Below, in pieces: positions 37,790 to 64,000 of a stretch of 64,000 bases of DNA (the first letter of the stretch is position 1; each line of letters starts with the position of its first letter). The DNA comes from Tubulanus polymorphus. Lineage: Eukaryota > Animalia > Nemertea. Position numbers and translations under genes: made by a program. The notes under the pieces were generated by a model. It ran no database searches and had not been told where the DNA came from. It saw nothing but the letters and a program-made list of their open reading frames with translations. Location of the stretch: contig NC_134034.1 of the NCBI RefSeq assembly GCF_964204645.1, forward strand, positions 9,188,962 to 9,252,961, given 5' to 3'.

Positions 37790-38189
37790 TTTCGCTTAAT
37801 ATTAATTTTATTTGAAAATATGTATGAAATCTAAAAAGTGATAACATCAATGGTAAACTTGGTTTGTTTAAATGATCATTCCAACTAATTCCATATCCTG
37901 TTGTTGCGCAATAAACAGAAAAATTTAATTGGTTCTGCCAATACTTCATATTAGATTTTAATAACCATTGTTTTGCCTCATTTAAATTTTTGAAATTAAT
38001 TGTATACACATAAAATTTATTCTCCATCTTTACATGAAAATTATTACTTTCAGTAACATAAATATATAAATCAATTAATGAATTTAAAACTTCATTTCTA
38101 TATGTAATATCTTTATTAAAATCTATTGCTGGAATATTATATTTAATTGATTTATTATATTGGAAAGCTTTTGGAAAACTATCTGCCAT
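37790..38189 (-). pseudogene. Conserved PLV hypothetical protein, 3'-truncated (homolog of 58555-59889)
   Basis: YWQNQLNFSVYCATTGYGISW; abuts the EnSpm segment at ~37780. Confidence 0.6.
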
Positions 38190-38205
38190 TTATATAATTA
38201 AAAAA

Positions 38206-38640
38206 TTAATAATTTATTAATTCTTTTAATAATTTATCTTGTTCTTCAACTGTTATATGACCATTTAAACTTATTATATAATCTAGTGTATTCTTTAATT
38301 TATTAATTTCTTTTATATTAGTTTTAATTTTTTCTTTATTACTTTTTATATTTAATTTTGAACTTATACCAGTTAAAACACTTGGACTTAATCCTAATAC
38401 ACCAATTGATATAGCTAAAGGTGTTAATGGACTGAATATTGCTAGAAATGTTATTACAGAACTAATTGTAACCGAACCACTAATAATAAGATAATATATA
38501 ATTTTACTTTTTAAATATTTATTCTTTTTTATCTTTAAGTCACTTTCAAATTCTAATATTTGTTTTTCTAAATTTATTTTTAATTTAGTTTTATTTATAT
38601 CATGAGGAATAATATCAATACTATCAACTTTATCTTCCAT
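38206..38640 (-). CDS. PLV small two-TM coiled-coil protein
   Basis: 144-aa intact ORF with two hydrophobic segments; conserved second copy at 59906-60340. Confidence 0.7.
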   Translation of the reverse strand: MEDKVDSIDIIPHDINKTKLKINLEKQILEFESDLKIKKNKYLKSKIIYYLIISGSVTISSVITFLAIFSPLTPLAISIGVLGLSPSVLTGISSKLNIKSNKEKIKTNIKEINKLKNTLDYIISLNGHITVEEQDKLLKELINY

Positions 38641-38655
38641 TTATTTAGAAAAAAA

Positions 38656-39065
38656 TTACTAATTAGTAAATTTATATGCTACAAATATAACGATAACAGT
38701 TCCACCTAAAATCCATATTATTTCATATTTCTGTTGTTCTTTACTTGGGGTATAATAATCTGATAATTTAGGTTTGAATAGATGTAATTTTTCTTTATTT
38801 GTTACTGCGTTATATAAACTGATTGAAAATCTCTATGTGAAATCATCTGATCATATAATTCCTTGTTAATATAATCCATATCGTTTTGTCTCTTTTCTCA
38901 ATATTCTTCAGCTGCTTTATTGTATTTCTCTAATGCTAAGTTATGTCTTTTTTGTTCTGTTAATGATCCATTTTTATCAATATGCTTAAATAAATAACCA
39001 CCACCAGTAAATGCTAAAGCGTTAGCAATTGCCGATCCTATAATAGTTATAACTGCAGAAGCCAT
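38656..39065 (-). pseudogene. PLV membrane protein (homolog of 60357-60782), frameshifted
   Basis: MASAVITIIGSAIANALAFTGGGYLF..EQKRHNLALEKY; short deletion near 38820. Confidence 0.7.
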
Positions 39066-39089
39066 TTATTTAGTAAAATAATTATGTAT

Positions 39090-39311
39090 TTATATGGGAG
39101 GAATATATTTTTGTTTTTCCAAATAATCAATAGTTAAATTAGATAAAGTAACTGCTAATGTTAATTTTAAAATATCATTGATATCAAATCTATCAACATT
39201 AACACTTCCCATTTTGAATACTTTTTTTAATACCATTGAATAACCAACAGTTCCAACTGATAATAATGCTCCACTATATAAACCAGTTATTATCCACTTA
39301 TTATCACTCAT
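39090..39311 (-). CDS. PLV small hydrophobic protein (73 aa)
   Basis: TAAATG start; homolog at 60807-61028. Confidence 0.65.
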   Translation of the reverse strand: MSDNKWIITGLYSGALLSVGTVGYSMVLKKVFKMGSVNVDRFDINDILKLTLAVTLSNLTIDYLEKQKYIPPI

Positions 39312-39344
39312 TTATTAATCAAAAAAATTACTATCTTCAAAATA

Positions 39345-39671
39345 TTTAGTTATCTTAGTGATGATTAATTCAACATTTATTTCATTACTACTTTTATGAT
39401 TATCATATATTTCGGTTAATATGTTTTTAATATCATCTATGATAAAATCTTCATCTTATTCATAAAATCTTAAAGATTCTCTAATTAAATTAGTAATCTT
39501 TTCTACATTTAAAGTTTCTTTATATATTGTTGTTTCATACTCAAATGTTGTTTCATTAGAAAATGCAATATTTTTGATATGTGTAATTACATCATTAATG
39601 TTAAATTTCATTTCTTTCTCACGTTTAAAATCAAATCCAAAACATATACTCGGTCCAACAGTTATATTCAT
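39345..39671 (-). pseudogene. PLV hypothetical protein (homolog of 61059-61370), internal stop
   Basis: MNITVGPSICFGFDFK matches the second copy; stop at 39456. Confidence 0.55.
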
Positions 39672-39687
39672 TTATATAGTGAAAAGA

Positions 39688-40446
39688 TTACTCTTTACAT
39701 CTTATAACTAATTCATAAATTACAGGAAAGTTATTCAAATCAATTAAATAACCATTATGATTTTTTATTTCTAATTTAAAATTATTGAAATGTGGAATAC
39801 AAGGTTTAAAATCACATTCAGTTAAATTATAATTTATTTGCGTTCCAAATTGTTTAACATTTTTTAATGGTAAAATATTTAATATACTAGAATTACAAAT
39901 TGTATCTTTAGTTGCTTCAAATGTTTTTGTTGGGTCAATTAAATTGCAATAAATATAAAAATGTGTAAAAGGTATTAAGTTTGATCTACCTTCTGAGTAT
40001 GCTGTAACAATATCTGGGTTAATTCCTAACAGTTTACCTAAAGGTTTTCTTACTGTGAATTTAAATTGTTCGTCATTAGCTAACCTAATCTTTATTTTAT
40101 TAGAACTATCACTTTTTAAAATTGTAATACTAAATCCGGAATCACTTCCTAATTTAGCTCGAGCTTTTCTATTAATTTCTTGTGCTAATGTATCTAAATT
40201 ATATAATCCTGGTTTTAAATATATAAAAAACCATTTATTCCTTTTTTTGTAAAAGATTGAAAAAATTAAATGTTCTAGACTTTTATCCGATATATTGTAA
40301 AATGAGTTACATAAACTTATATTTACTAATTTTAAATCAACACAATTATTTAATTCTCTATCTAATTGAACTATTAAATTATGTGATTTATAATTTGTAA
40401 GTTTTCTAGAATCAACAAATATTCTGTATTCTTTTAATTCTACCAT
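39688..40446 (-). CDS. Minor capsid protein (penton, single jelly-roll)
   Basis: 252 aa; Polinton/PLV mCP pattern IFVDS...NSFYNI...LKPGLYNLDTL...FYIYCNLID...IKNHNGYLIDLNNFPV. Confidence 0.7.
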   Translation of the reverse strand: MVELKEYRIFVDSRKLTNYKSHNLIVQLDRELNNCVDLKLVNISLCNSFYNISDKSLEHLIFSIFYKKRNKWFFIYLKPGLYNLDTLAQEINRKARAKLGSDSGFSITILKSDSSNKIKIRLANDEQFKFTVRKPLGKLLGINPDIVTAYSEGRSNLIPFTHFYIYCNLIDPTKTFEATKDTICNSSILNILPLKNVKQFGTQINYNLTECDFKPCIPHFNNFKLEIKNHNGYLIDLNNFPVIYELVIRCKE

Positions 40447-41285
40447 TATTTATAACATAAAAAAATTACCGCTCATCACTAAAAATAAATTTTAATAAAA
40501 TTTTTCCTTAATAAATGGATGAGAAGATACCATGCGAAATTTTTGGTGAACTTCTAAGAAAAAGTAATATGGCTCGACATATGAAAAAACATGATGAAAA
40601 TTATAAACCCCCTAAACTAAACTGTCCAAAATGTAATAAATTATTCTCAAGAAATTATGTTAAAAAACATTCAGAGAAGTGTAAAATTAATGGCGCAACA
40701 GCTAATGTTGATAGTAACGAAAGTAATAGTAATTCTGTTGAAGTTGAACCTGAAGTTATTTGGAAAAGACCTTTCTTATTCTATGATAAGGATAATATAA
40801 AAGATCATTTCTGTGAGCCTTGTCGAATAAAATATAGCCCTGAAAATATAGAAGATTGGGAGAATCATCAATTTCGTAAAGTACATATACAGAGCTGCCA
40901 ACCTTGATTTCATCTTTGGCTGAACACATGTCCAGATTTATCAGTATTTTCAAAAATTTTCCAGTAGTCCCAAATTTTCAAAACAGAAAACGCTTAAAAA
41001 GTCAGTATTAAGTTATCAAAAGTCTGTATTACAATTAACACATAGAACGTTATTCATAATAGAACAAATTCTATTAAAATATATTAAAATATATTGAAAT
41101 ACTTCAGTAACAGAAATATTATTGATTGTCGAGATCACAATTAACTAAAATTAACAGTCACAGTAGAAAAACACAACAAAACTTTTGTTTGTTGATAAAC
41201 TAAAATAAAACATAACATAACATAGCAGTAACAATAATAATACTAAATTTATGATCAGGCACTAGATAATGCCAGTGTGTTGCGA

Positions 41286-42167
41286 TTAATGATTTTTTAA
41301 TGACAACCTGGTTGTAGATTTGCATTTTCTTAATAAAGTTTCACTATGATTATTCGAATGGCATATCCCACCACGTGACTTCAAAAGCATCAGTGCCTCC
41401 AGAGTATCTGGAGCAAGGCAAGAACGAAAATCTGTCTTATTTTTACGGACGGTACTGAACACGCGTTCACAGCAGGCATTGGCCACTGGTATCAGAAGAA
41501 TTATCATCATGAGTCTGGGAAGCACATTAAATCTAAAAAAGATGACAGACAAGATGCTCATTGATAAGAATCTAATATATATGACATAAAGTGTTACACT
41601 AGACATGAATGAGCCTATGTACCTTTGAGATCCAGTACAATCAATAAGCTGTGCCATCAGTTTCCACTGTTCTTCGGCTGGTCTATGAACAGGACCAGAG
41701 CTATAATCTTTAGCTATTTGACTGTCAGGAAACATTTTGCGAGCCAATTCCCCGACATGGTCAGCTGCACTAATAGGAATATTGTGCTCGACTAAGAACT
41801 CACAGAACATCGTTTCAGCACGAATAACAGATAGGTCTTCTTTTTTCACGAAAAATGATGTTATATTCTTAGATTTATTCAAAACTTTGGCAGCTTCCGA
41901 ATGTTTACTTGTGGCCATGTGTCTATGGATATCGTCGACGCCACCGTAGGCTACCGTAAAATCGCTTTTACAGTAGGCGCAGAAGGCATGATGTTTGGAC
42001 TTACTACTCTTTTCAATACACGGATATTTCATTGAATATTCCTCCCGAAACTTTTGCATTCTACGCTTTTTCTTTGCAGGGCAAGCCGCTTTAGTATTCA
42101 GCTCCGAAACATCAGAATCAGACGATTCTGAATCAGATCCTACCGAAATCAAAAGGCCGGTCGCCAT
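41286..42167 (-). pseudogene. hAT transposase deletion derivative (BED-like finger fused in frame to the dimerisation domain)
   Basis: AFCAYCKSDF...DIHRH...KH; FLVEHNIP; catalytic core missing; LLIPVANACCERVFS..KNKTDFRSCL. Confidence 0.8.
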
Positions 42168-42185
42168 TTTGTCAACAAACTTCTG

Positions 42186-42241
42186 ACACCGTACTAGTGC
42201 GCCATCTTCACTTCAATGAAGGTGGCGCACTAGTACGGTGT
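42186..42241. other. 25-bp-stem hairpin just upstream of the hAT transposase ATG
   Basis: ACACCGTACTAGTGCGCCATCTTCA-CTTCAA-TGAAGGTGGCGCACTAGTACGGTGT, one mismatch. Confidence 0.85.
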
Positions 42242-42280
42242 AAGAGAAATTAGATAAGGACCGGCGGGGTCCTCGGGGAT

Positions 42281-42980
42281 GGGTCTGACTATTTCAGATG
42301 GCTGGGAGTCACCTTCATTTCGGTCAACGAATTATACATTTAGACTTCACCTACGATGTAACGTAGCACAATACACTGGGTTCGAATCCCGTAAATCGTT
42401 CCAGGAACTCGGTCCCTCAGCGCAATTCGTTCAAACAAAATTCCCATTTTTTGTCTGAATGAAATTCAATTTAATGACCAATAGAAACTTATTTCCAATC
42501 AGGAGATCTGCTAACCAAAAGGAAATTCCTTAAAAAGTCCTCGTAAATTACATTCAACTTGAACAAAAATATAAACTAAAACCATATATATGTACCATAC
42601 AAACTTTTTTATTTCACAAATTTCTAAATTTGAATAAACACCACATTGTTCTGATATAAATCAAATTACACAATTTTAAAATTTGAATATACATGTACAT
42701 AGTTCTGATTGACTTGGAAATTTGAAAATTGGATTACAACACGGCCTTACAGCATTTTAATAGTGCATACGGTTCAGATGATGTTAGGTGACATTGAGTA
42801 CAATATGGTGAATATTACAAGTCGTTGATATACAAATATGGTGATTGACAAACATTTCTCTACAACGATCGGGTTACTAAGATATAAAAAATTATTATGT
42901 GTAAAAAGTTAAAAAGCAAACCAAAATGGCCAAAGTGTGCAGAAACCTGTTGCCGAAGTGTGCAGAAAATAAATGTTATC

Positions 42981-43040
<60 letters not shown>

Positions 43041-44052
43041 GGTATATATATGCCAATGAGTCAACACATTTACAATGGACAAAAATTTTCCACAACTTTA
43101 AATGTTCCTATATTAAAATAATTAGCATATTTTTTATGTAACTAATCGACACCACATTTGTGCTGTGTAATGATCCCAATAACCATTATCAAAAATACAT
43201 CATATACATGTTATATGGAGTATTAGACAAAAACATTAAGTCAAAAAGCAGTAAGTGAAAGAGAAAAAAGCATGTTGCACCCCCCAACAAAAATATGTTT
43301 TGGTATTAAGTCCATTCAAGTCAAGCATTTATAGAATTAAAAATATAACCAGAAAATTATAGTTTAAGTAGGCTAGGCCAAGCAAAACTGGCAGCTTGTC
43401 AAAGCGGCATCATAGGGGGGGGGGGGGGGCGATGAAGCATCTGCCCCCCATAATTTTGGGTACGACCTAATTTTTTGTAATGATCACCATTAGGCTATAT
43501 ATTGTGATTTCGCTGAAATTAAATGAAGTGGTTTGCCCCAATAATACCCGTAATTCCGGTGACGCGCGCCTGCATGTATTAGCCTATAGACATACGATCA
43601 TATCGAAAAACAGTACAGGAAGGCTTATTCGTACTGGTGCATATATGCTGTTTGCGAGGCCATATGTCAACACGACAAGTGTTTTCTTAACACAACACTC
43701 ATCAGCTTATAAGTTATTATACTGTACTATAGGCCTAGATAGATAGAACAGAAAACAATTAACAAGACTAGAGTCAGAGAGACATTAAAATTACGGTAAA
43801 AGATAAACATACCACCACAATATTCAGAGAAATTTTCCTTCCACCAGACGCACCACTTAGTTCTTGACTTCAATTCGTGTTCATTGATGAGTGATGACAC
43901 CGCCATAAAATCATGACAATCATGACGACAATAAGACGGATCGGAAGATGAAGTTGAATCGTCCGCCATTTTAGGTACGTAGGTAAAGTCTAAATGTATA
44001 ATTTGCAGACCGAAATGAAGGTGACTCCCAGCCATCTGAAATAGTCAGACCC
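42281..44052. mobile_element. Non-autonomous Mutator-like (MULE) element
   Basis: 45-bp perfect TIR GGGTCTGACTATTTCAGATGGCTGGGAGTC... extending imperfectly to ~75 bp; 9-bp TSD CTCGGGGAT. Confidence 0.88.
42983..43038. repeat. (TA)n microsatellite
   Basis: About 28 TA units. Confidence 0.98.
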
Positions 44053-45260
44053 CTCGGGGATGAACAAATGAAGATCGTCGATCATCGGGCCAAACTCCAC
44101 CCTCAACTTACAAGTTTGATTGAGAGAAAATGAGGAAAAACGAAGTAAATTGCTTTAAAAAGACATTTTGTCAATCCGTAATATATCAATTTTTTCCGTA
44201 CTCTCTGGTGAAAATATCCGTAATGATTTTTCAAAAAACGGAACCCCGTATTTTGTCACGATTTTCCGGAACTGTTACGGAAAAATCAGAACGGTTGGCA
44301 GCTCTGCATATAGATAAAATTTCTAATTAATTTGAAACTGAATTCAATGAAAGAAAAAATAGTTTATTAGAAAAAATAAAATATGAGAAAACGTTACCAG
44401 ATAATAAAGAAACAGTTGAAAAGTTAGAAAAACAATATAATGAATTAACAAGAAAAACATATTATTGTAAATATTGTAAATTGATTATTACAACAAGTAA
44501 TTCAAATCTACATAATAGAACAATAAAACATAAAGAAAACGTAAGAAAATACCAGGAGCTTAATGAAGATTTATTACCAATAAATTATAAACGAAAATGT
44601 CCACAATGTAGTTATGCGACCTTAAGGCAAGAAGGTACTGTGTTATTTTGTAATGAATGTGGATGGCAAAAGAATTTATGGGGTGAAGAAAAAACGAGAT
44701 TTTCTCATAGAACCAAAATTAAATAATCTTGATGAAATTTTTAAAATATTTTCTATAGAAGATCATACACCAGAATATAAGCAATGGCTTGAAAAAATGA
44801 AAATAATAGAAAATGAAAATGGTGAAATAACTAAAAAAGATATTATAAAAACAATTATTCCATCAACATTTAACACAAAACAAAAGAAAATGTATTTATA
44901 TTTATTATTTAACGATTATTATGAAAAACCGAAATTAACAGAAGAAGATATGGAAAAGATAAAAAAAATATTCAAACAAATATTAATGTATCATTTGGAA
45001 AATAGAATAACAGATTCAATTAATTATGAATTCTTTTTAAATAAGATTGTAAATTATTTAAACATAGATATTATAATTCCATTTGACGAATTAACAAACA
45101 AAAAGAAACAAAGAGAGCGAGATGAAATGTGGTACAAGATAGAACTATATTTAAATGAGAAAAATGAAATGGAAGAACCTAAACAAATTATACAAGAACA
45201 ATTAAATGAAAATGAAGAAGCCAATAGTGATTTCGAGTATGATGATATTGATTTTATGTT

Positions 45261-48200
45261 TTAATGGCCATAAGGTAATGTTTTTATACCATCATCTAAA
45301 ATATGCCTTTTATCATCAAATGGATTTAAACTAGTTTTTTCAACTTCATTAATGTACATCTCGTGATCTTCTGATCTTAAACAATTCATTTTATGTTTCA
45401 TTACAATTGATTTATATAAACACTTGAAATTCTATATGTTTATCAACCACATGTTTTGTTATTCCTTTTAACTTTTTAGCTTCATGATCTTTTGTTCTAT
45501 AACTATACATTTTACTTCTTATCCCAACAAATTCAATCATTTCATCACCCCCTAATTCATCTTTAAATTAACCAGGAATGTTTTTATTATCATTGCTAAA
45601 TAGTTCATGATCTTTGGGATAATTGCTAAAATCAAAATGATGTTTTAAAGTTTTTAAGTCTTTTGTTAATTGGAATTAATGGGAACCCAGAATTGAATGT
45701 TCCATCATCTGTTGATAAATCATAAACATAGTCAGTTGGGTTATATATTTCAAATAAATCTTTAACTTCTTCTGTTAACTCATTTTCTACATGGCTTAAA
45801 TTAAAGCAATTTGGTTTAGATTTAATCAATCCAATATTCATATTAATCCTAATGAACTGCATAATATATTCAATCCTGATATAGCAACTTTTCCTTTTTG
45901 AGCTAAAGATATTGTTTTGCGGTTTTTGAAACTTTTTGAACCATCTGCAGCATAGAATCCAATGAAGAACCATTTTCTTAAATTATTTTTTGCATTTAAT
46001 ACATAATCTGGAACTATCTTTTCTTTTGTTGAAGTATTACTTTTAACTATTGCATGAATATAGAATTCATCATTATATTTTATAGCAAAATCTTTAGGAT
46101 TATTTACAAGTATTCTATAAACTGCTGTTGATTTCATAACATCCATGATTTTAAATGTTTTATTTGGATAAACTTCTTCACAGAATTTCTTAATTCTTTC
46201 TAATAATTTTAAGTCTTGATTGCATAAATACCAACAATATTGAGTGCGATTAACATAATTATACACACCTGCTGAACCATCACCCATGAAAAATCCTTTG
46301 ATAAAATATTCTTTTTCTTCTAATGTTTCGGGTTCTATATTATAAATATTATCAATAATTTCATCGAATGACATATGATTCATTCTTTGGAAAAATCTTT
46401 TATGTAATAATTCATCTCCAATTTCTATATCAGTTGGTTTTATTTCATCGCCATTTCGTTTAATTAAACTATGATCTTCTGTAACATCTACAAATCCAAA
46501 TTTAGTTCTTACTCTATAGATTTTCTTATTTGTTTTATGTCTAATAATATTCTTTAATTTTTTCCATCCATTTCTTGTCCAAACATCCATTAAACCATTT
46601 ATTTGTATTAATTCTTTTTCACCATATGAAATATAACATTCATTTTGTTTTGGATTTATTTCTGAAATTCTTCTTATCAATATTTTATCATTACATTTTT
46701 ATAATATTGGGGTGTCAGCTGTTACAGAATCAAAATATAATATTTCAATATGCTTTTCCCCAAAAAGTGGTTGTAAAACATTATAATAAAAATCATACAT
46801 TAATAATTTTGATACTTCTAAAACAGTTGAACCAATGAATATAGGTTTATCAAATTTCATTGACGTTCTTTTTAATTTAACTGCTGTTAAATAATCTTCA
46901 AATCTTTTATTTCCTAAATGTCTAGGACTTGATTGTAAATGTCTTAATCTTTCAGAATTATTTACTAATTCAATATCATTTCTATTTCTAATATTTTCAC
47001 ATGTTTTACCATGAAAACTATTGTTCATTAATTTGAAGAAATCTTTTTCAAAATCTGTTTTTGATATGGTTCTCTGTTGAGTATTGAAATCTTTTCTTTA
47101 ATTTCATTCCTTGTTTTAGATAAAATTTTAACATTCTATAATGAACAATATAATTGTATTTATTATTTTGAGTAAGTATTAATTTTTCTGTAAAAACATG
47201 ATCTTTCGGTTTTATTTTCTTCTGGTATTCACTTAAATAACTATCATCTACAGTTAAATGTTCTGGGCAATAAGGTAAGTTTCTTGTTTTAAACTTTATA
47301 TTTTCAGGATATTCTAAATCAACTACAAAGAAATAACCAATTGGTGCTTCATCTTCTAAACTCATAATTGCGCTTTCCCAATCAGTTTTATCACCATTTT
47401 CAACTTCTGTTAATATAAAATTTTTATATGGTTGAGGTTGCATCATTGCCCAACCATATAAATTATTGGCGTCAATATATAATAATTTATATTCATCATT
47501 TGCTTTAAAATATCTCCCATAACACCACTAATTCCACCTCTAATTGATTTTTCAAATAATAAAACCATATCTGGTTCTTTTAATAAATCTAATTCTACAT
47601 TTGTATATTTTAAACCACATTGCCAGGTTAAACCAGGACTAGAGTAGCATTAACAAGGATCAACATTAAAATGATTCAAATTAACTTCTCTAAATTTTTC
47701 AAATATGTCAGCCAATATCATAACATCTGATTTTAAATATAAATCAACTAATTCACCATGATTTTTCATCTTAAAATGGTTCCAAATATTTAATGTTCTA
47801 TTAAACACTTCGTCTTTCACATACTCCTCTTTTAATTGATCATAAAATTGATCTTTTAATAATTCTGTTACATTAAAATCATTGTGTGTTTTATAAAATG
47901 AATAAGGAATTGCGCCTTTATATCTCAATAATTTAAAATCTTGTTCATTTGGATAATAATATCGAGTTATAACAAAATCATTATCAACTAAACTTTTTGA
48001 TAAATTATCTAATGAACTTGCTAGAAATCTATAAGAATCTAAAAATCTAATGCAACCAAATTGAAATGAAATATAATTTTCAGATTTTTTAGCTAATAGT
48101 TTAAAATCATATTTTCTTACATTTACACCACTCATAGCATTATATTCTTCTATTTCTTGATAAATTGCGCCCAATTTCTTTGATAATTGTTTTATAAATA

Positions 48201-50223: not shown

Positions 50224-50238
50224 TTATTAGGAAAAAAA

Positions 50239-51590: not shown

Positions 51591-51899
51591 TGCAAGGGTA
51601 AATTAATTCAGCATTAGCAAAATCAAAATTGTGTGAAGTCTGAAAAACATGACATGCCTTTAGTTTCCTTAGTTTGTAACAGCTTTTATGTTATATATTA
51701 TCCCTAATTTGTATCACATCTTATTATTATTGAATCACAGTTTATATTTGAATTATCAAGAACTTAAATTTACTAAATTACCAAGTTAGTAATTAGTTAG
51801 TCCAACCAGTACATTTTTATCGGTATAAATGTACTACAGCATTCATGATGGTGCAGATTTGTCTTCATTTACAATGCTTACTAGTATTTACAAATAGTA

Positions 51900-53365: not shown

Positions 53366-54345
53366 CTATAATAAAAAATAAAATCATTCAAAATTTAAAC
53401 AAATATAATTTATCCAAAGGTTAATTAAACAGGAGTAGATTTATTTTTCTTGGACAGGTGTCTCATTGAGATACTGATATCACAACACTTAGTATCACAA
53501 ATTCTTTTCCTGTATCTCAAATTTGTGGGGGGGGTTGTATGGGGGTACCCCTTGGATCGTTTTAGTTATCTTTTTTTATGCAGTCCAAATAAATCATTGT
53601 TTTTATATCAACTTTACACTGTTTAGCTCATTTGAATCAGAGAAAAGACAGGGGCAGATCCAGACGGGGCGTACGCGGCACGACCACCCCCCCCCCCCCT
53701 ATTTTTTGCCGAGCAAAGAATTTTTTCAAGCCACTTTATATACTACATATATGAAAAAAACGCAGAATGTTGTTAAAAAATCCTCTTGGTGACAGTCCTT
53801 CGTAATCTATGCGTTGAACATAAGATGAATTGTAGAAATGTGGGATAAAATAAAGTTAAAACTATAATTATTTCGTTGATTGCTAATCTTATTGAAAAAA
53901 ATTGAACATATTTTCTTTTCTATCATATCGTATTAGTATTAAGACACATTTTACGTATGTGTTCAAAACATTAAGCAAAATATCCCAAAAAGAACGGGGC
54001 GGATCTAGGGGTGAATAATGGGGTACCCCCTCTAAAACCATCCGAAAATTTCTAAAAGGGCTTGTTTCGTGTAAATAGTCCATCTCTATAATCATTGCGG
54101 CAGTTTGGCAGACATTGGTGCTGTAGTTCATGCTTGACTCGGGTGAGGAATCGTAAATTATAGGAAAATAGTAAATTATAGGAAAATAGTAAATTATAAT
54201 GACAAATGACAATGTTCGCGGAGCTCCGTCGTATACTGCGTGTACTTTAGAGATAGTGGAAGTGATATGTACGACCATTGACATTTAACGTTCTCAGTAA
54301 AGGATTTTTTTATCGTTTTATTCATAGAAGTGTAATTAATAGGCT

Positions 54346-54623
54346 GTGGTTATTTTGCCGGATCCGGTCTCCGACTTCTGAACGATATTTTGCCGGAAAA
54401 TTCAAGGAAAGTGTGGAGAACAGAGGGCGAGAAAATAGAGCGGATAGAGCGAGACTCGAACCCGGGCCAGTAAATTGACACTAACCCTATCCTATCGAAA
54501 CCCTAACCCTAAACCCAATATAATGATTTTATTGTTACTTTTATTAATTTATATTATACGTAATGTATGTATCCGGCTAAATATCTTTTATAAGTCGGTA
54601 ACCGGATCCGGTAAAATAACCAC
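54346..54623. mobile_element. MITE carrying a tRNA-like B-box fragment and TTAGGG-like repeats
   Basis: 23-bp TIR GTGGTTATTTT(G/A)CCGGATCCGGT; internal minus-strand GGGTTCGAGTCTCG and CCCTAA-like units. Confidence 0.6.
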
Positions 54624-54969
54624 TCTAACGAAAGAATATACTATACCTTTGACTCTTGTACAAGTTCCAATTCGACGGTATCTGCTAAAGACAGTTTTAG
54701 CCTTTTTGGTCGCGGCATTTTCCGTGAGCAGCTTTTATTAAATTCAATGATTTATAACAGATTTCAAAATGTGGCGATTTGTTGACTTGTGGCGTTTCCG
54801 GTGGATGAGATGAACGCCCGCGGAGTACTCGGTGCCGCATCTAGTTCCATACACAAATGTGTTGACTTGTGTCACCACAATTTGTTCCGCGATGTACCTT
54901 GTACCCTAAATGTTGCCTCAAATGTCGCGTCAACACGGATATAGTGTTCTACCAATCGTGAATAACTTT

Positions 54970-55562
54970 TATTGTATGTTCAATAGAATTATCATGTTTA
55001 ATTTTATCTTTAGGTAATACAACAACATTACACTTTTCACATATATTTCTTTCTACATTATCCAAATGTATTTGAGTTAATTTATGCTTTGAAAAATTAC
55101 TACGACTTATATATTTATCACATCACAATATTCATCTTCTTTAACATTATCATTATCAATTTCACTATCATTATTAAATTCGTTTATAGTCGTATTCTTA
55201 TTTTTCTTATCCTGGAGTGAATTAAGATGAGTTGCCCAATTCGTATAACTTTTATACTGTTTACATACGTCACAATATTTTTCATTTGTCTTTTTGGTTT
55301 TGATATCAGGTTCAATCTTATCATCATTCGATGTAGAAGGTATAACATAATCTTCTATTTTAGATTCAATATTATCTTCTATTTTAGGTTCAATATTATC
55401 TCCTATTTTTGTTTCAATATTATTATCTATTTTACTTATTCTATATTTGAATTGATTAAAGTATTCTCCAAAATACTTACTGTATTCATCATAAGGTATT
55501 ATATAATATATATCTGGTATCATTTCACTTGGACTTTGTATTTCATATATTCCTCCTTCCAT
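54970..55562 (-). pseudogene. PLV multi-C2H2 zinc-finger protein
   Basis: YCDVCKQYKSYTNWATHLNS and further C..C..H..H units beyond a frameshift; short IE.KIED repeats. Confidence 0.55.
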
Positions 55563-55594
55563 TTATTATAAAAATTTTTATTAAAATTAAAATT

Positions 55595-56848
55595 CTAATA
55601 CATAACACTATTCAATTGAGAATTTACAATATTTAATTGCGCGTCAGATATGATGTAAATGTGCATTTTAAAATTTAAGCTTCCTTTTTTCTTTTTCATG
55701 AATAATTATATTCCATCTTTAGTGTTCTCTAGTTTTTTCCCAGAACCATGTAATAAGTTATCCTCTGTTGTTTTAAAATCTAACCATAATGCATATTTAT
55801 TACCGGTATAATAATCAATTTGATTAATATTACAATTTTCAGATGATTTTACTTTTTCATTCATAAAATGTTTTCTAATTTCTGGCCACTGATCTATCAT
55901 TCTCATTCCTTGACAAAATATTTTATTTGCTATGCCTTCGATGGTTATATCTACTTTTGTTATTTCAGGATTATAATACTTATCAACCTGTATTGCACCA
56001 TTAGAATATGTTGCAATGGTAAAAAATATTAATATACCTTTAATAGATCTTCTTGGGAAGTTAATATTCTCATTAATTATTTCATCATGTGCATTAATAG
56101 TTACAGTTTTAAATTTATCAATATAATCATATAATTATGAAAATCCTTGATTGTATTGAGTTTGAATTATACTTGAAATATTTTCATCAGTTACTGTATC
56201 ATATTCTAAACATATATTCGATAATTTATAACCCATATCTTAAATTATATTTGATATTAAAATTTCATTAGCAGGACCAAATGTTATCTCAAATATAATA
56301 TCTTCTTGAATTGTGCATTTATATAAAGGTGCATTTTTATTTATCAATTCAAAATCTAATGGAATTTTATATTTGCTTCCATTAATCTTTTCGATCAAAT
56401 TATCTACGTCATTAGTTACTACTGCATTATTAGCTTCTGATCTTAATTTATTTTGGTTTTCTGATTGGATGCCTTGAAATATCATATTATTTCTATTTCC
56501 TTTTGTTAACCATAAATCTTTGTAATGCATAAATAAATTATAATCATCTAATGAGAAAACTGTTTCTGGCCCAATCTTTATAGTTAATTTTTTAATCAAA
56601 TATCTTCCAACATTATCAACAACATTATTATTATTATTATTATTACCAGTTACATTTATATCAGCTGATAAATAAATACTATTTGGAACATAAAAAGTAT
56701 TTTGTGTTAATCTAGGGATTCTAACATATAAAGTTTCATCAGGATTAATATAAGAAGGGTTATGAGTAATTATATGATGAGATCTTTCTGCTTTAATAGC
56801 GTTAGATATTCTAGGATTCTTAGAAGGATTTACATAACTCCAACTCAT
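55595..56848 (-). pseudogene. Major capsid protein (double jelly-roll), ~415 codons, frameshift near 56240
   Basis: THNPSYINPDETLYVRIPRL, NVGRYLIKKLTIKIG, YKDLW, YKIPLDFELI, KYALWLDF..LHGSG and C-terminal HIYIISDAQLNI; size and context fit a PLV MCP. Confidence 0.65.
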
Positions 56849-56868
56849 TTATTTAACAAAAAAATTAA

Positions 56869-58562
56869 TTATCTATTTTTCATCATATTCACTAGCCCAA
56901 AAATAATAGCACTTACAACTGTAATTAAAAATAAAATAATATGTTCAGCAGCAAAGTTAAGAATATTCCCAGCAGATTTCAATATAAAACCAACAATTGA
57001 TGCAATAACTCCGGGTAAAGCTGCAGCAGATTTTTTAGATAGTTCCCATAATCATTTTGCTAATTTTTTTAAACCATCCTTAACTTTATCTTCTATAGAA
57101 TTATTATCATTTGGGGGTTTATCCGGTTTATTGGAAGTAGAAGTAGATTTCAATGAATTTGATATAGCTAAACCAATTGTTGTGAAAACCATAGTTACAG
57201 CTGATAGAATTGAAAGAATTGTTATTCCTTCTAATTTATATAATAATTTTTTTCTGTCTTTCAATGATATTTTAGAATCTGTTTTTATTATTAAATCTTT
57301 AAAAATAACTTTTAATTTTTTAATATGATTAAGATCATATGATTTTAATAATATATCTCTTCCTTTTTCCTGAAATTCTTTGTTATATTTTAAATCATCT
57401 ATTTCTTTTTCTAAAGCTAACTTTCTGCATTCATTATCAACTTCATCAATTACTTGAAGATCTCTATTTAATTCTAATTGTTTTAATTCTTCATTTGCAT
57501 TAGTTAATTCTTTTTCTAACATGGTTATTTTAGAAAATCTCATCTTAATATTAGCAATTTCACCAGCTGATTCTTGCATACCTTTAATTTCTCTACGTGC
57601 TTGTTCAGGAAATATGTTCAATTGTTCTTCATTTAAATCAAGTAATCCTTTTTCTAGTAAAGATTGTATTCGATTTATTCCAGTTTCAGCACCGGGTGTA
57701 TCTAAAACACTATTCATCTCTTCTTCAAATGAGTGAACTGTATCTAACATGCTATCAAAATGTTTTACTAATTGTAATTGACTTGAATCATTATCAATTT
57801 GTTGAATATCTCTTCTCGATGTTTCTGGTGTTGAAGATCTTAATATATCTAATCGATCTGCAAAATCTTCATCATTTTCTGGGTCAACAAAAGTAGGTTT
57901 TGGATTTGGATTTTTAAATGGTGAATAATTGTTAATATCAATATTCGGAATCGGTTCATCTTCATTTATTCTATCGAGTGCATATAATTCTGCTAATTTC
58001 TAAACCACCTTTTGAACGTTCAATTGTAGATCTTGCTCGCATTCCAGGTTCATACATATTTTCTTGTCCCATTCTAGATAATTGAATTGTTACAGTTTTC
58101 CTATTTAATTCAAGATTATAATACCATGCATCCTTTTTAAATTCTAAATTATTCATGAAATGTGGATCATCTTTTAAAATTTGCATTACCTTCTGTATCA
58201 ATTTCATCTATTACAACTTTTGGTAATAATTGGTTAACAATTGTTTCTGTTACTCTAGATTTCATTTAATATAATTCCATGGGTTTATCAGGATATTCTT
58301 CTTGTTGTTTTTCTAATAGATTCATTAATTCTTTTCTTTCTGTTATAGTTGTAATTCTACCAATTTTAGGAGCTTCTAAATATTTATTTAATTTTTCAGG
58401 TACCTCGGCATTAATTCCATCATAATCATCATCATTATTTAAATTAGAATTAAATGCTAATCCATCATCAATACTGATACTAGTATCAGGAAAATCAAGT
58501 TGCGGTTCATCACTTATACGGGGGGAGTCACCAACAGTATCCAATGGAATTTCTTTATCCAT
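56869..58562 (-). pseudogene. Large coiled-coil protein with C-terminal membrane segments
   Basis: TAAATG at 58562; ORF pieces 58266-58562, 57971-58207, 57052-57750; tail ALPGVIASIVGFILKSAG..EHIILFLITVVSAIIFGLV. Confidence 0.55.
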
Positions 58563-59889
58563 TTATATAATAGAAAATTAAATATAATATTCCTCCTATT
58601 ACAATTCCTATACAAGTAATAGCTAATTTAGTATTTTCATTTGATTTATTATCATTATCAGTTTTAATTATGTCATGTTGAATAATATCAGTTTTTATAT
58701 TTTCTGATGTATTGTAATCTTTTATTTTAGAATCATTATTTAATTTAATATTCTTAGTTTTAGTTTCTGTTGATTGAATATGTTTTTTATTTTTTTCACC
58801 TTCCATTAATTTTGGAGCAGTGAAAATCTTTTTATTTATATCATACGATCCAAACTTATTATTTATTGTTGCAGTTTTTATCAAATTATTATAACCAATT
58901 ATATTTCCCATTTTTAATACTAAATCATTAGAAATAATTAATAGATTAGGGCCTATACAATAATTTAATCTAATATGTGATTTATCTAAATAATTTTGAT
59001 ATCTTACAATGTTTTCTGGAATCGATCTATTTTTATCATTGTGAATGGAATCTTCAAATAAAACTTTGAATTGTTTCTGCGCGTCAAATGAAGTGTTATC
59101 ATTTCCAACTATTGGTGATCTTGTTTCAACTTGCGCACCTAGAATACATATCAAATGAGGTCTAATTGATTGATTTATTCTTTGTATGCCTGATTTTGTA
59201 AAACCTTCACTATTTTCTAAAATAAAATTAATCCAACCATTATTGTTTTGTTGTTGTATATTATTATAATATTTTGGTAATTCATTCCAATTTAGTGTTC
59301 TTATATCTGTATTTGTCATTATTTTTCCAAATTCGTTAGTATATAATATTCCTAATCCACCCATTGTACCAATTTTTGCTCTAAAATCATTATTTGAATT
59401 AATATTAAATTCATTACATATTTCATAAAACTTCGAAAAATTAATATTATTATTTAGTTCATTAAAACATTTTGAACCTGGTAAAGGACATTCTAATTCA
59501 TCTTATATTAATTTTATTTGAAAATAAGTATGAAATCTAAAAAGTGATAACATCAATGGTAAACTTGGTTTATTTAAATGATCATTCCAACTTATACCAC
59601 ACCCTGTTGTTGCACAATAAACTGCAAAATTTAATTGGTTCTGCCAATATTTCATATTGGATTTAAATAACCATTGTTTTGCCTCATTTAAATTTTTAAA
59701 ATTAATTACGTAAACATTGAATATATTTTCCATCTTTACATTGAAATTATTAGTTTCAGTAACATAAATTTCTTAATTAGTTAATGAATTTAAAACTAAA
59801 TTTGTATATGTAATATTTTTGTTAAAATCTATTGCAGGAATCTTATATTTAATTGATCTATTATATTGGAAAGCTTTTGGAAACCCCAT
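58555..59889 (-). pseudogene. Conserved PLV protein with C-terminal TM anchor
   Basis: TAAATG at 59889; YWQNQLNFAVYCATTGCGISW; RINQSIR..ILGAQ; tail ITCIGIVIGGILYLIFY. Confidence 0.6.
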
Positions 59890-59905
59890 TTATATAATTA
59901 AAAAA

Positions 59906-60340
59906 TTAATTATTTATTAATTCTTTTAATAATTTATCTTGTTCTTCAACTGTTATATTACCATTTAAACTTATTATATAATCAAGTGTATTTTTTAATT
60001 TATTAATTTCTTTTATATTAGTTTTCATTTTTTCTTTATTACTTTTTATATTTAATTTTGAACTTATACCAGTTAAAACACTTGATGATAATCCTAGCAC
60101 CCCAATTGATATAGCTAAAGGTGTTAATGGACTGAATATTGGTAGAAATGTTATTACAGAACTAATTGTAACTGAACCACTGATAATAAAATAATATATA
60201 ATTTTACTTTTAAAATATTTTTTCTTTTTTATCTTTAAGTCACTTTCAAATTCTAATATTTGTTTTTCTAAATATGTTTTTAATTTAGTTTTATTTATAT
60301 CATGAGGAATAATATCAATATTATCAACTTTATCATCCAT
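59906..60340 (-). CDS. PLV small two-TM coiled-coil protein
   Basis: Intact 144 aa; homolog of 38206-38640. Confidence 0.7.
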   Translation of the reverse strand: MDDKVDNIDIIPHDINKTKLKTYLEKQILEFESDLKIKKKKYFKSKIIYYFIISGSVTISSVITFLPIFSPLTPLAISIGVLGLSSSVLTGISSKLNIKSNKEKMKTNIKEINKLKNTLDYIISLNGNITVEEQDKLLKELINN

Positions 60341-60356
60341 TTATTTAGAAAAGAAA

Positions 60357-60782
60357 TTACGAATTAGTAAATTTATATGCTACAAATATAACAATAACTG
60401 TTCCGCCTAAAATCCAAATTATTTCATATTTCTGTTGTTCTTTACTTGGGGTATAATAATCTGATAATTTAGGTTTGTATAGATGTAATTTTTCTTCATT
60501 GGTTACCGCGTTAGATAAACTCATTGCATCATCAACTGATTGAAAATCTCTATGTGAAATCTTCTGATGATATAATTCTTTGTTAATATAATCCATGTAA
60601 TTTTGTCTCTTTTCTCTATATTCTTCTGCTGCTTTATTATATTTTTCTAATGCTAAGTTATGTCTTTTTTGTTCTGATAATGACCCATTTTTATCAATAT
60701 GCTTAAATAAATAACCACCACCAGTAAATGCTAAAGCGTTGACAATTGCCGATCCTATTATAGTTATTATTGCAGATACCAT
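60357..60782 (-). CDS. PLV membrane protein (N- and C-terminal hydrophobic helices, central coiled coil)
   Basis: Intact 141 aa; TAAATG start. Confidence 0.7.
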   Translation of the reverse strand: MVSAIITIIGSAIVNALAFTGGGYLFKHIDKNGSLSEQKRHNLALEKYNKAAEEYREKRQNYMDYINKELYHQKISHRDFQSVDDAMSLSNAVTNEEKLHLYKPKLSDYYTPSKEQQKYEIIWILGGTVIVIFVAYKFTNS

Positions 60783-60806
60783 TTATTTAGTAAAATAATT
60801 ACGCAT

Positions 60807-61028
60807 TTATATAGGAGGAATATATTTTTGTTTTTCCAAATAATCAATAGTTAAATTAGATAAAGTTACTGCTAACGTTAATTTTAAAATATCATTTATA
60901 TCAAATCTATCAACATTAACGCTTCCCATTTTAAATACTTTTTTTAATACCATTGAATAACCAACAGTTCCGACTGATTATAATGCTCCATTATTTAATC
61001 CAGTTATTATCCACTTATTATCACTCAT
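60807..61028 (-). pseudogene. PLV small hydrophobic protein, internal stop
   Basis: Homolog of 39090-39311 with a TTA-to-TAA change near 60980. Confidence 0.6.
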
Positions 61029-61058
61029 TTATTTATCAAAAAAATTACTATCTTCAAA

Positions 61059-61370
61059 TTATTTAGTTATCTTAGTTATAATTATTCCAACATTTATTTC
61101 GTTACTACTTTTATGATTATCATATATTTTAGATAATATATCTTTAATATCATCGATAATTCGATCTTGATTTAATCCATAATATTCTAAAGGCGTTTTA
61201 ATTAAATCAATTACTTTTTCTGTATTATAATTTTCTTTATTAATCATTGATACATTATTAAATGATTTACGTTTAATATCGGTAATTACATCATTTAGTT
61301 TAATTCTCATTTCTTTACCATGTTTAAAATCAAATCCAAAACATATACTCGACCCAACAGTTATATTCAT
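61059..61370 (-). CDS. PLV hypothetical protein (103 aa)
   Basis: TAAATG start; homolog in segment A. Confidence 0.6.
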   Translation of the reverse strand: MNITVGSSICFGFDFKHGKEMRIKLNDVITDIKRKSFNNVSMINKENYNTEKVIDLIKTPLEYYGLNQDRIIDDIKDILSKIYDNHKSSNEINVGIIITKITK

Positions 61371-61386
61371 TTATATAGTAAAAAAA

Positions 61387-62144
61387 TTACTCTCTACACT
61401 TTGTAACTAATTTATATATCACAGGAAAGTTATTCAAATCAATTAAATATCCATTATGATTTCTAATTTCTAATCTAAAATTATCAAATTTAGGAATGCA
61501 TGGTTTGAAATCACATTCTGTTAAATTATAATTTATTTGCGTTCCAAATTCTTTAACCTTCTTCAATGGTAAAATGTTTAATAAACCAGAATCACAAGTT
61601 ATATCTTTAGTTGCTTCGAATGTTTTTGTAGGATCGATTAAATTGCAATAAATATAAAAGTGTGTAAAAGGTATTAAGTTTGGTGTAGCTTCAATATTTG
61701 TTAAAGATTTATCTGGAGGAATTCCTAACAGTTTAGCTATAGGTTTTTTACCATAAATTTATGTTTTTCAATATCAGCCAACATTATCTTTATTTTGTTA
61801 GAACTCTCACTTTTTAAAAATCTAATATTAAACCCGGAATTATTACCTGACTTGTGCCAGGCTTTTCTATTAATTTCTTGTGCCAATGTATCTAAATTAT
61901 ATAACCCTGGTTTTAAATATATATAGGCCCATTCATTTTTATTTTTATTAAAAATTAAAAAGGCTCTATGTTCAACAGTTTTATTCGATATATTGTAAAA
62001 TGAGTTACATAAACTTACATTTACTAATTTTAAATCAACACAATTCTTAAATTCTCTATCTAATTGTACTAGTAAATTATGTGATTTATAATTTGTAAGT
62101 CTTCTTGAATCAAAAAATATTCTATATTCTTTTAATTCTACCAT
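61387..62144 (-). pseudogene. Minor capsid protein, second copy, frameshifted near 61740
   Basis: Homologous to 39688-40446 over its full length. Confidence 0.7.
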
Positions 62145-62161
62145 TTATTTTACATATTTTC

Positions 62162-62516
62162 TTATTCGACATCTATTTCATGGTGCCCTTTTTTATTCTT
62201 ACCTGTGTATATGAAATAGAAATCACCTGAACATAATTCTTCTGAATCTTCACTTGATAATCTATGAAATCTATCTGGTAAATATGTTCTGAATTTATAT
62301 TTATTTCCTTTTAATCCTTCATATTCTAACTGGATAACTAATTTACTACCATATCTATTAGTAACTGTATCAATATTTGCAATTAGATATTTCTTATGAA
62401 TTGTTAATTCTGTTAACTTCTTAAATTTATAATCTACTGATTTATCATTTGTAGTATATTTTTATTCTATCTAGAAATGATCTGTTGTTCTCACTGTGTA
62501 CTTGTTTATTCTCCAT
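62162..62516 (-). pseudogene. Small beta-rich protein, possibly OB-fold/SSB-like
   Basis: TAAATG at 62516; after a frameshift FKKLTELTIHKKYLI..VTNRYGSKLVIQL...TYLPDRF...FYFIYTG. Confidence 0.35.
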
Positions 62517-62628
62517 TTATAATACATATTTTAATTAAAATTGATTTTAGAAGTTATGAGATTAATATTTTTAGAGTAATAGGAAATAAGTTGTTAAAGG
62601 TTGAGAGGGATTCATAATATGAATATAA

Positions 62629-63243
62629 TACCCTCTCTGTCTTTATTGACTTTAGTAGTTTTAGTACTTTTAGTACATAAAGAATAAATCTTTATATTAT
62701 CAATACTTTAAAAATAAAATAGAACTACTAAACTCCTAAAGAGATAAAGACATAAATATATATATTACTGTTTCAATAATAATATTTATTCATCTGATGG
62801 ATTTTATATTACTGTTCCAATAATAATATTTATTTATCACACATATTTATTATATATTACTGTTTCAATAATGATTAATATCATAGATTTATCATGTATA
62901 AAAATTATTTATATATTTATGTTTCTAAGTACTAATAAAATAAAGATATATTCTTTATGTACTAAAAGTACTAAAGATAATAAAGACATAACAAACACAC
63001 ATAGATTTATCATATATATTTGATTCAGTAATAAATATCATAGATTTATTTATCTCACAGATTTATTATATATATTTGATTCAGTAATGATAAATCTATA
63101 TGTGTTTGTTGTGACTCTATTGTTTTTATTGTCTTTAGTAGTTTAGTAGTTTTAAACATAATTTTATTCAGTACTGATAAAATAAAGATTCTTTATTCTT
63201 TGTGTACTAAAAGTACTAAAGATAATAAAGACACAAGGAGGTA
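62629..63243. repeat. AT-rich nested inverted-repeat region
   Basis: ~130-bp imperfect inverted arms (62629-62760 vs 63100-63243), a third partial copy at 62930-62990, and inner hairpins. Confidence 0.75.
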
Positions 63244-63496
63244 TTAATTTGAAATAGTTTCTATAATATTTCAAATTTTATTTTATAAATTTATATTCAT
63301 AGGGAAATTGAAGCCTCAGAAGTAATTTTGAACCTTTATTATTCTTTAATTTATTCATATATTCATCATGTAATTCAGTAGGTATAATTTGATTTTCTTC
63401 CAATGTTTGTTGCATAGATTTTCTATCTTTGTTATAAAATAAAACTAAAAATCTCATAATATATTAATATCATCACTCATTTATTTTAGTTAATTT

Positions 63497-64000
63497 TTAT
63501 TCTGATTTATTTTCTGTTTTACCGTGTGGGGGTCGTACGACACCATCTGTTTCGTTCTTACCTGATTTATATTCTATAGGCTTGATATTCGAAAATGTTA
63601 TGACACCAGTAGAAATTAATGTCATAACCGATCCTAATTGGAATGAAGCGTATCCAACCAATTTTTGTAATTCAGTTATAACTAAGTAGTCAATTTTTAA
63701 ATCAACATATAATTCATTTTCATCATCAATTGGTATAATCCGTTTACATAATTTTGAATAACATTTGACAATACCATCAGAAATAGAATCATTTATTCGG
63801 GCCAATCTTGACTCTTCATAAATCTTAAAATATTTTATTACTTTATCTGGTTTCATAGCATCTAGTTCTTGATAAGTTACAATTTTTCCCAAGAATTCTT
63901 TAGATTTCCCTCCGGCAATTAGTAATTCAAGATGGTGCTTACAATATAAGTAGTATTCATAATCAATATTGTTATCAACTTGAGCACAAGTAGTTACAAC
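63497..64000 (-). CDS. PLV hypothetical protein, start probably upstream of the ORF call
   Basis: ORF 63497-63892 with viral-like composition; its stop is followed ~16 nt later by the next TAAATG. Confidence 0.5.
   Translation of the reverse strand, partial: VVTTCAQVDNNIDYEYYLYCKHHLELLIAGGKSKEFLGKIVTYQELDAMKPDKVIKYFKIYEESRLARINDSISDGIVKCYSKLCKRIIPIDDENELYVDLKIDYLVITELQKLVGYASFQLGSVMTLISTGVITFSNIKPIEYKSGKNETDGVVRPPHGKTENKSE

Follow-up and report, generated by a model that had tools for sequence, protein, structure and literature searches.

How do the genes of a polinton-type virus come to be expressed once the virus lies in an animal chromosome? The question is raised by a stretch of 64,000 nucleotides from the nemertean Tubulanus polymorphus (contig NC_134034.1, positions 9,188,962 to 9,252,961 of the forward strand; hereafter the window). 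In this stretch, two decayed pieces of such a virus, broken up by transposons, start nearly all of their genes at one short motif, ATAAATG. For animal polintons no virion has been seen, and they may be free viruses, transposons or parasites that depend on larger viruses (10.64898/2026.06.19.733378). A sequence-only reading of the window had taken the element for a virophage-like hyperparasite transcribed by a pox-like giant virus. The analysis reported here makes it very likely that the promoters are read by the polymerase of some large helper virus. With less assurance, it favors an endogenous virophage-like polinton whose promoters would be read by the RNA polymerase of a co-infecting, pox-like helper.

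A cassette at the gene starts

The two pieces do not form one element. Copy A (54961 to 64000, minus strand, 23.7% GC) runs past the end of the window, and copy B (37785 to 50310, minus strand) is cut at its left end by a host repeat, contains a hAT-type transposon and has an approximate right end. Their shared part is 87.8% identical over 2673 nt. The element is polinton-type by three core genes (capsid, pPolB and A32 ATPase). The gene for the major capsid protein (55595 to 56848, minus strand) starts at ATAAATG, carries three premature stops and matches intact relatives at 69-74%. One relative of this capsid (P0004, 72% identical) was modelled as a double jelly roll (pLDDT 85), and the top fold matches of the model are the iridovirus, PBCV-1 and mavirus capsids. 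The named neighbor of the capsid is a bivalve protein with 37% identity. The pPolB gene (45264 to 50223, minus strand), broken by stops and frameshifts, also starts at ATAAATG; it matches PF03175 with 31.6 bits for a cut-off of 25.8 and carries an endonuclease VII-like insert with a weak PF02945 match. Of the A32-like packaging ATPase a remnant is left (63281 to 63480, minus strand, A-run start), most of the gene being deleted. It is 75% identical over 59 aa to the ATPase of an intact relative, locus L001, which is a Pfam Pox_A32 protein; an intact Pox_A32 is also found in locus L002. The endogenous polinton-type virus of the sequence-only reading is thus borne out by a double jelly-roll capsid, a pPolB and an A32 ATPase remnant.

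Nineteen gene starts were examined. They represent about 13 distinct genes, about six starts being second copies, and so are only partly independent of one another. Most are backed by homology to intact relatives, and those at 50223, 58562 and 63480 by position and reading frame only. ATAAATG, the invariant core of the cassette, is found at 18 of the 19 starts; A occupies -4 at every one of the 19, and T occupies -12 at 18 of them. The cassette of the capsid gene (56846 to 56867, minus strand) consists of TAAT, a T-run, a spacer and ATAAATG, a layout that recurs at other starts. The 18 TAAATG starts listed by the sequence-only reading are exact to the coordinate, and the variant that it had noted at 40446 reads TAAATAATG. 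Its T-run before nearly every gene holds in part, the T-run (-16 to -10) being present at 15 starts and replaced by an A-run at -21 to -14 at the other four (63480, 62516, 62144, and 55562). Upstream of the cassette, nothing is conserved besides the T-run. The short spacers that had been claimed, of about 15-30 nt, are found in the right copy for nine of the ten adjacent gene pairs (16-32 nt), the remaining pair overlapping by 8 nt. The cassette also stands between head-to-head genes, at 40446/40515 in the window and at 5548/5568 in L002.

Compared with an AT-matched background, the motif is strongly enriched. Among the 704 other ATGs of the same AT-rich segments, 44 are preceded by TAA and 13 by ATAA, and the combination of a T-run with WATAA, present at 15 of the 19 true starts, is seen at one of these 704. 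Across the window, the strict pattern TAATTTTTTN{3,7}WATAAATG occurs 8 times, and 100 shuffles did not produce it once. In Markov-simulated DNA of equal composition, the first ATG after a stop is preceded by TAA in 7-10% of cases and by the full cassette in 0.3%, so that the in-frame-stop bias of TAA cannot account for the cassette. The poxviral early termination signal TTTTTNT, to which the sequence-only reading had also pointed, is at chance level on the coding strand (32 occurrences for 34.9 +/- 6.5 expected); many of its occurrences are the promoter T-runs themselves or lie inside coding DNA.

Conservation was followed in 83 metagenomic loci with a related capsid gene. In the intact relatives L001, L002 and L004, 26 of the 28 genes begin at TAAATG and 24 of these 26 have T at -12, and intact relatives keep the cassette also at 40-44% GC. 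The ATPase start keeps its A-run in L001-L004. When homologue-supported starts are divided by capsid identity (14 loci at 47% or above and 30 below, 31 loci without a usable capsid identity being excluded), the cassette is present at 30 of 36 starts in the close relatives, where T occupies -12 in 32 of 36, and at 19 of 109 starts in the distant ones. It follows descent, not composition, because close loci with a GC content of at least 33% have it at 9 of 10 starts and distant loci with at most 33% at 3 of 18. In the capsid tree, the window belongs to a clade (support 0.994) in which the capsid gene starts with TAAATG in 13 of 14 loci. Outside this clade, a TAAATG capsid start occurs in six further loci on three branches, and in the other half of the tree, which includes the bivalve protein, capsid genes start without TAAATG. 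The cassette is therefore a real feature, and it is clade-wide. Two loci, L016 (5516-9358) and L020 (4001-9012), both at 47-49% GC, show a different motif before most genes, a short T-run followed by a TATATAG-like sequence; they carry a VLTF3 of non-pox type and are perhaps wired for a different helper.

In the late promoters of vaccinia virus, TAAAT and the G after it overlap the start codon and the 10th base upstream is a conserved T, and intermediate promoters have no conserved T and are AT-rich further upstream (PMC11980589). TAAAT templates a 5′ poly(A) leader through slippage (PMC4542343, PMC6211774). The T-run class of the window fits the vaccinia late promoter to within one base, and the late-promoter layout asserted by the sequence-only reading is recovered, both for TAAAT(G) over the start and for the upstream T (18 of 19 starts each). 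The A-run starts may correspond to intermediate-class promoters, the class to which vaccinia A32L belongs (PMC11980589). This assignment stays a lead, because the likely minor capsid gene has a different class of start in each of its two copies.

The late transcription factor gene and the polymerase intein

The gene on the plus strand at 40515 to 45264, which starts at ATAAATG and is split by a transposon, encodes C2H2 fingers followed by a zinc ribbon and a helical VLTF3 domain, with one stop and one frameshift. Its N-terminal piece (40515-40889) presumably belongs to it, as judged from the shared target-site repeat. The whole open reading frame (ORF) missed Pfam owing to composition bias; the trimmed domain passes PF04947 (Pox_VLTF3) at 44920-45156 with 30.4 bits for a cut-off of 25. 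With a profile of 11 giant-virus VLTF3s, the domain ranks first against 1000 shuffles, and hhalign with these 11 sequences gives 92% and an E value of 5.6e-7 over 178 columns. The gene is thus a VLTF3 homologue. A protein search for longer homologues of the piece returned none, a PDB sequence search with it gave nothing significant, and its single-sequence fold (pLDDT 43) had no significant fold match.

Several comparisons place this domain near the poxviruses. A degenerate DNA pattern for its 10-residue core has 40 matches in IMG/VR, of which 38 are poxvirus A2 genes and none is a giant-virus VLTF3. These 38 genes stand in a poxvirus-type gene order, beside A1 and D13 where checked, and their identity was checked with Pfam on three of them (L204, L215, and L232). 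A pox profile scores the window VLTF3 at 36.7 bits and the best of the 11 non-pox VLTF3s at 21.6; the score of the window VLTF3 with the non-pox profile is 13.1. In a tree built with 16 of the 38 A2 sequences, the window VLTF3 is sister to the poxviruses (support 98.4/98, or 98.6/99 with the 10 columns of that core removed) and branches outside all 16. Broader sampling of A2 returned only the same poxvirus records. By sequence comparison, then, the closest relative of this VLTF3 among those sampled is poxvirus A2. In vaccinia, A2L is required for transcription from late promoters (PMC11980589). A VLTF3 in polintoviruses has already been reported (PMC11131425, PMC8502044); what appears new here is its probable pox type and its pairing with pox-type promoters, for which no precedent in a polinton was found in the literature searched.

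The pPolB carries, at polymerase motif C, an intein with Hint and LAGLIDADG domains (45670 to 46728, minus strand), which is broken and has lost its C-terminal junction. It is absent from the pPolBs of three other loci (L019, L026, and L075). Other pPolBs give its best matches (46-61%), followed by RNA-primed polymerases of family B, of large-virus size, with up to 41% over the full length. In a tree of the 72 matches, out of 120 listed, that could be extracted by pattern, together with the window and two giant-virus bins, the inteins of five pPolBs group as a single clade (support 1.0) that lies within the rest. The members of this clade are lodged in distant types of pPolB (P0141), a distribution that points to homing from one polinton to another. 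As a pointer to the helper, the intein was considered and rejected: the sister of the pPolB clade is that of a Pol delta-like polymerase, and not the intein of bin G001. An intein drawn from the giant-virus PolB pool and the deoxynucleoside kinase of L001 both indicate gene flow with large DNA viruses, and the intein records contact with giant viruses and identifies no helper. The kinase gene of L001 (10340-10981) itself starts at a cassette and has one IMG/VR relative, at 37%. In the literature searched, a splicing intein in a pPolB is not the main subject of any paper, and in the available text of PMC11161782 intein invasions come up solely in connection with inserts of homing endonucleases.

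Which RNA polymerase reads the promoters

Pox-style TAAATG starts together with an A2-related gene make transcription by a poxvirus-like RNA polymerase likely. No RNA polymerase subunit was found among the ORFs of the window or those of its relatives that were scanned, which is consistent with dependence on a helper. In the mechanism that can be proposed, the integrated copy would stay silent until the helper infects the cell. The polymerase and late factors of the helper would then bind the T-run in the cytoplasm and initiate inside TAAAT, where slippage would give a 5′ poly(A) leader, with one mRNA per gene. Within the viral factory, pPolB would copy the genome, which capsid proteins and the ATPase would then package; new copies would be inserted into the chromosome by the rve integrase that relatives carry. 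The A2-like protein of the element may join or replace the corresponding factor of the helper and so favor the promoters of the element.

For the virophage-like, pox-helper reading thus speak the cassette, its conservation in the clade and a VLTF3 nearest to A2. What does not stand is the motif alone as a pointer to a poxvirus. TAAATG opens 14 of 35 genes in G001 and 14 of 34 in G002, two giant-virus bins of Pimascovirales-like type, so that the cassette speaks for the polymerase of a large cytoplasmic DNA virus and not for that of a poxvirus alone. Further observations weigh against a pox helper. The pox set had been chosen by the 10-residue core, which was therefore masked in a new comparison, and the advantage of the pox profile was then gone (8.3 bits for the pox and 5.6 for the giant-virus profile, or 19.1 and 23.8 without null2). 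The approximately unbiased (AU) test favors the position beside the poxviruses and does not reject two non-pox placements (p 0.15 and 0.12; 5000 replicates, fast trees). The branch of the window VLTF3 is long, its last helix is nearer to non-pox VLTF3s, and the VLTF3 sample is without entomopoxvirus, egovirus and asfarvirus sequences. The close TAAATG relatives, being partial contigs, yielded no VLTF3. Among the 120 intein matches listed, none has a polymerase Pfam family specific to poxviruses, and no helper sequence was found.

These observations give some room, if a rather small one, to a helper other than a poxvirus, either an iridovirus-like member of the Pimascovirales or a relative of egoviruses or asfarviruses, with an ATAAATG late promoter of its own. 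The pox likeness of VLTF3 would then come from long-branch attraction or an old transfer. Invertebrates are commonly infected by iridoviruses, and the best match of the G001 capsid is an iridovirus capsid (E 5e-123), that of G002 being similar by inspection. When IMG/VR was scanned for the cassette, 100 stretches came up, most of them unremarkable, but several giant-virus loci among them have TAAATG at about half of their genes; outside G001 and G002, several giant-virus-like loci have it at 3-5 of 5-9 genes. G001 also has a PolB intein at the same site as that of the window pPolB, and the sister loci L016 and L020 combine a non-pox VLTF3 with another upstream motif. On the other side, G001 and G002 were picked by the pattern and are thus a biased sample. 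Their TAAATG starts follow T-rich DNA at -16 to -10, but the T at -12, present at 18 of 19 starts in the element, is weaker there (7 of 14 and 9 of 14); the poxvirus loci of the set, with TAAATG at 113 of 237 ORF starts, are no stronger when promoter classes are pooled (58 of 113). The window VLTF3 has no match in G001 or G002 and reaches an E value of about 1e-3 in three of the 11 bins, and in the intein tree G001 does not provide the sister of the polinton group. The G001 and G002 loci are L191, L192, L160, and L143, and no paper on their TAAATG starts turned up in the literature searched.

Could the element instead be an autonomous nuclear polinton read by Pol II? Its cassette would then be the poly(A) signal of the gene upstream or a TATA box, or it would couple stop and start or act as the acceptor in trans-splicing. 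AATAAA is contained in 12 of the 19 starts and TATAAA in six, two L001 spacers measure only 3 nt, the element integrates and is multi-copy, and coral polintovirus genes are reported to be expressed in ordinary transcriptomes (PMC11131425). A poly(A) signal would not be expected at head-to-head genes and at the terminal pPolB, where the cassette stands without any upstream gene end. As a TATA box, touching the ATG, it would put the start site inside the gene, the usual spacing between the two being about 30 nt. For trans-splicing there is no AG acceptor, because G is absent from -8 to -1 at all 19 starts; T at -3 is the opposite of the Kozak purine; and the stop codon of the upstream gene is distinct from the TAA in 9 of 10 pairs. 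A late factor of cytoplasmic-virus type would also be left unexplained, and we know of no use of such a factor with Pol II. AT-richness, stop-start coupling, a TATA box, a poly(A) signal, trans-splicing and TTTTTNT termination were thus all considered and rejected, and transcription by Pol II appears improbable. It seems more improbable still, indeed barely credible, that the promoters are read by the polymerase of a resident cytoplasmic element, or by one encoded in intact copies, without any infecting helper. The yeast pGKL elements do offer a model, having a TAAAN initiator, 5′ poly(A) leaders and their own polymerase (PMC6211774). However, the scanned ORFs hold no polymerase subunit, polinton genomes of 15-20 kb leave little space for one, and nothing is conserved upstream beyond the T-run.

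The two copies, their setting and their known counterparts

The gene order of copy A matches that of L001, which has in addition an rve-chromodomain integrase, a complete A32 ATPase gene and the deoxynucleoside kinase. Most large genes of the window carry stops or frameshifts. On the minus strand, the capsid gene of copy A is followed by a zinc-finger-like gene with an A-run start (55107 to 55562). Two conserved, broken genes of no assigned function (56869 to 59889; 442 and 485 aa in L001) have cassette starts at 59889 and 58562, and four small genes (59906 to 61370) of 103, 73 (broken), 141 and 144 aa, the last SLATT-like, have a cassette each. Then come a frameshifted gene with an A-run start (61390 to 62144), which, judging by its size and position, is likely that of the minor capsid protein, and a broken small gene (62162 to 62516), possibly for a single-stranded DNA-binding protein (SSB), a lead given by an Atlas score of 0.87 to a phi29 SSB cluster. 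Between this gene and the ATPase remnant lies an AT-rich block (62530-63280) of nested inverted and direct repeats with arms of 97, 54 and 42 nt. The block has no long counterpart in relatives and could be an origin or a product of decay.

Besides pPolB and the plus-strand VLTF3 gene, copy B holds, on the minus strand, a truncated second copy of the 442-aa gene (37785 to 38189, cassette at 38189), second copies of the four small genes (38206 to 39671, a cassette each) and an open second copy of the likely minor capsid gene (39688 to 40446), which has the variant start and stands head-to-head with the VLTF3 gene. The transposon that splits the latter is a host hAT-type element (40890 to 44306) with 13-nt terminal inverted repeats and a 6-nt flanking repeat; another element with 78-nt inverted ends is nested in it (42278-44055). 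Between the copies, the DNA is of host or transposon origin and partly low-copy (50311 to 54960). No rve integrase was found in the window, whose two copies are partial; one is present in L001, L002 and L005. An adenain-type protease gave no Pfam match in 28 ORFs of the window, in 28 ORFs of L001, L002, L004 and L006, or in 82 of the 135 listed ORFs of other loci, all contigs being partial. Within the window, no matching pair of terminal inverted repeats with a 6-nt target duplication was found, both copies being truncated. PHROGs and NCBIfam searches of the unknown genes added nothing, and capsid and pPolB searches of a viral contig collection had no matches.

The flanking 37 kb is transposon-rich eukaryotic DNA with 38% GC (Helitron-like, piggyBac-like and others, most labels being given by inspection), in which no host gene was found. 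Helitron-like Rep/helicase frames of 1079 and 236 aa lie at 10611-14561 (by inspection) and a piggyBac-like transposase at 34950-36101 (by Pfam). An 87-nt host repeat, identical at 37698-37784 and 29281-29367, forms the left break of copy B. Read mapping used run X5, another sample of the species, at 90% likeness, and covered 44500-60150 of the window. With a depth of 12 for the low-copy stretch, the VLTF3 gene has 242, the intein 219, pPolB 302 and the capsid gene 644, which, if that stretch is single-copy, amounts to about 20, 18, 24 and 52 copies, respectively. The family is thus present in tens of copies. At three of the premature stops of the window (those among 40 of 654 rows), at least 98% of the X5 reads differ from the window, so that this copy is more decayed than its family. 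The capsid gene (55462-57027) is about twice as deep in X5 as pPolB and VLTF3 (44500-48675), and many copies may therefore pair the capsid with another replication module or be partial. The segment 54925-54961 is common to more than 2000 X5 reads with unlike flanks; it is a high-copy repeat that edges copy A and is possibly the end of the element. In summed contig depth, the capsid gene stands about 2000-fold above low-copy DNA in X1 and about 290-fold in X2, a measure that gives no copy number; the excess in X1 may flag a sample with amplified virus.

Sputnik, mavirus and the polinton-like virus (PLV) Gezel-14T resemble the element proposed here in having no RNA polymerase of their own and in carrying the promoter motif of their helper; mavirus also integrates via rve and has a pPolB. 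They differ by their protist hosts, their Mimiviridae-type helpers and their other motifs and capsid families. The helper motif is late in Sputnik and mavirus and early in Gezel-14T (10.1101/2022.07.28.501842). Closer in gene content are the Mavericks/Polintons and adintoviruses, which share pPolB, the A32 ATPase, the double jelly-roll capsid and many chromosomal copies (PMC8502044), along with the rve integrase and chromodomain of the relatives and the SLATT and likely SSB accessory genes. The element differs from them in the pox-type start on nearly every gene, the VLTF3 that appears to be of pox type, the pPolB intein and the adenain protease, which was not found; the main text of PMC8502044 contains neither "promoter" nor "intein." VLTF3 homologues in integrated polinton-like elements are shared with the coral polintoviruses (PMC11131425) and the MELD viruses (PMC8502044), where they are described, in the available text, as giant-virus or mimivirus-like and without a promoter link, whereas the one found here is apparently nearest to A2 and accompanied by matching promoters.

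With the vaccinia late and intermediate promoters and the yeast pGKL initiator, the cassette shares TAAATG over the start and a T about 10 nt upstream or A-rich upstream DNA. In contrast to these systems, it stands on nearly all genes, that of the DNA polymerase among them; no RNA polymerase was found in the element, and the early terminator is not enriched. Another likeness is with the PLVs found in entomopoxvirus occlusion bodies, small polinton-like viruses proposed to be poxvirus hyperparasites, one of them integrated (PMC11296320). They were physically found with a known helper, whereas the link here is made by promoters and a transcription factor. The sequence-only reading had held that PLVs with such promoters were already reported alongside entomopoxviruses. 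For this no basis was seen in the main text of PMC11296320, in which promoter, TAAAT, motif, transcription and VLTF do not occur. Nor was a description of TAAATG promoters in polintons found in the literature searched, preprint supplements being outside that search; the word "promoter" is absent from the available text of two preprints (10.1101/2024.03.23.586382, 10.64898/2026.10.13.758929).

Promoters and a transcription factor that both point to pox late transcription make the question of polinton expression testable. They predict that the host has a poxvirus-like virus, although none was seen here, and promoter motifs may allow helpers to be assigned to integrated elements by the thousand. 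A second trace of cells shared with giant viruses is the intein of the protein-primed polymerase. We put forward, as a tentative proposal that could well fail, that a whole clade of animal-genome polintons are virophages of poxviruses, with pox late and intermediate promoters on every gene and, in the present case, a captured A2-type factor. If so, sister clades with other motifs, such as those of L016 and L020, would mark helper switches. The element would in that case preserve the fossil trace of a deep and still undiscovered lineage of poxviruses in an invertebrate, and it might serve an animal as an inducible antiviral reserve, as mavirus does in Cafeteria.

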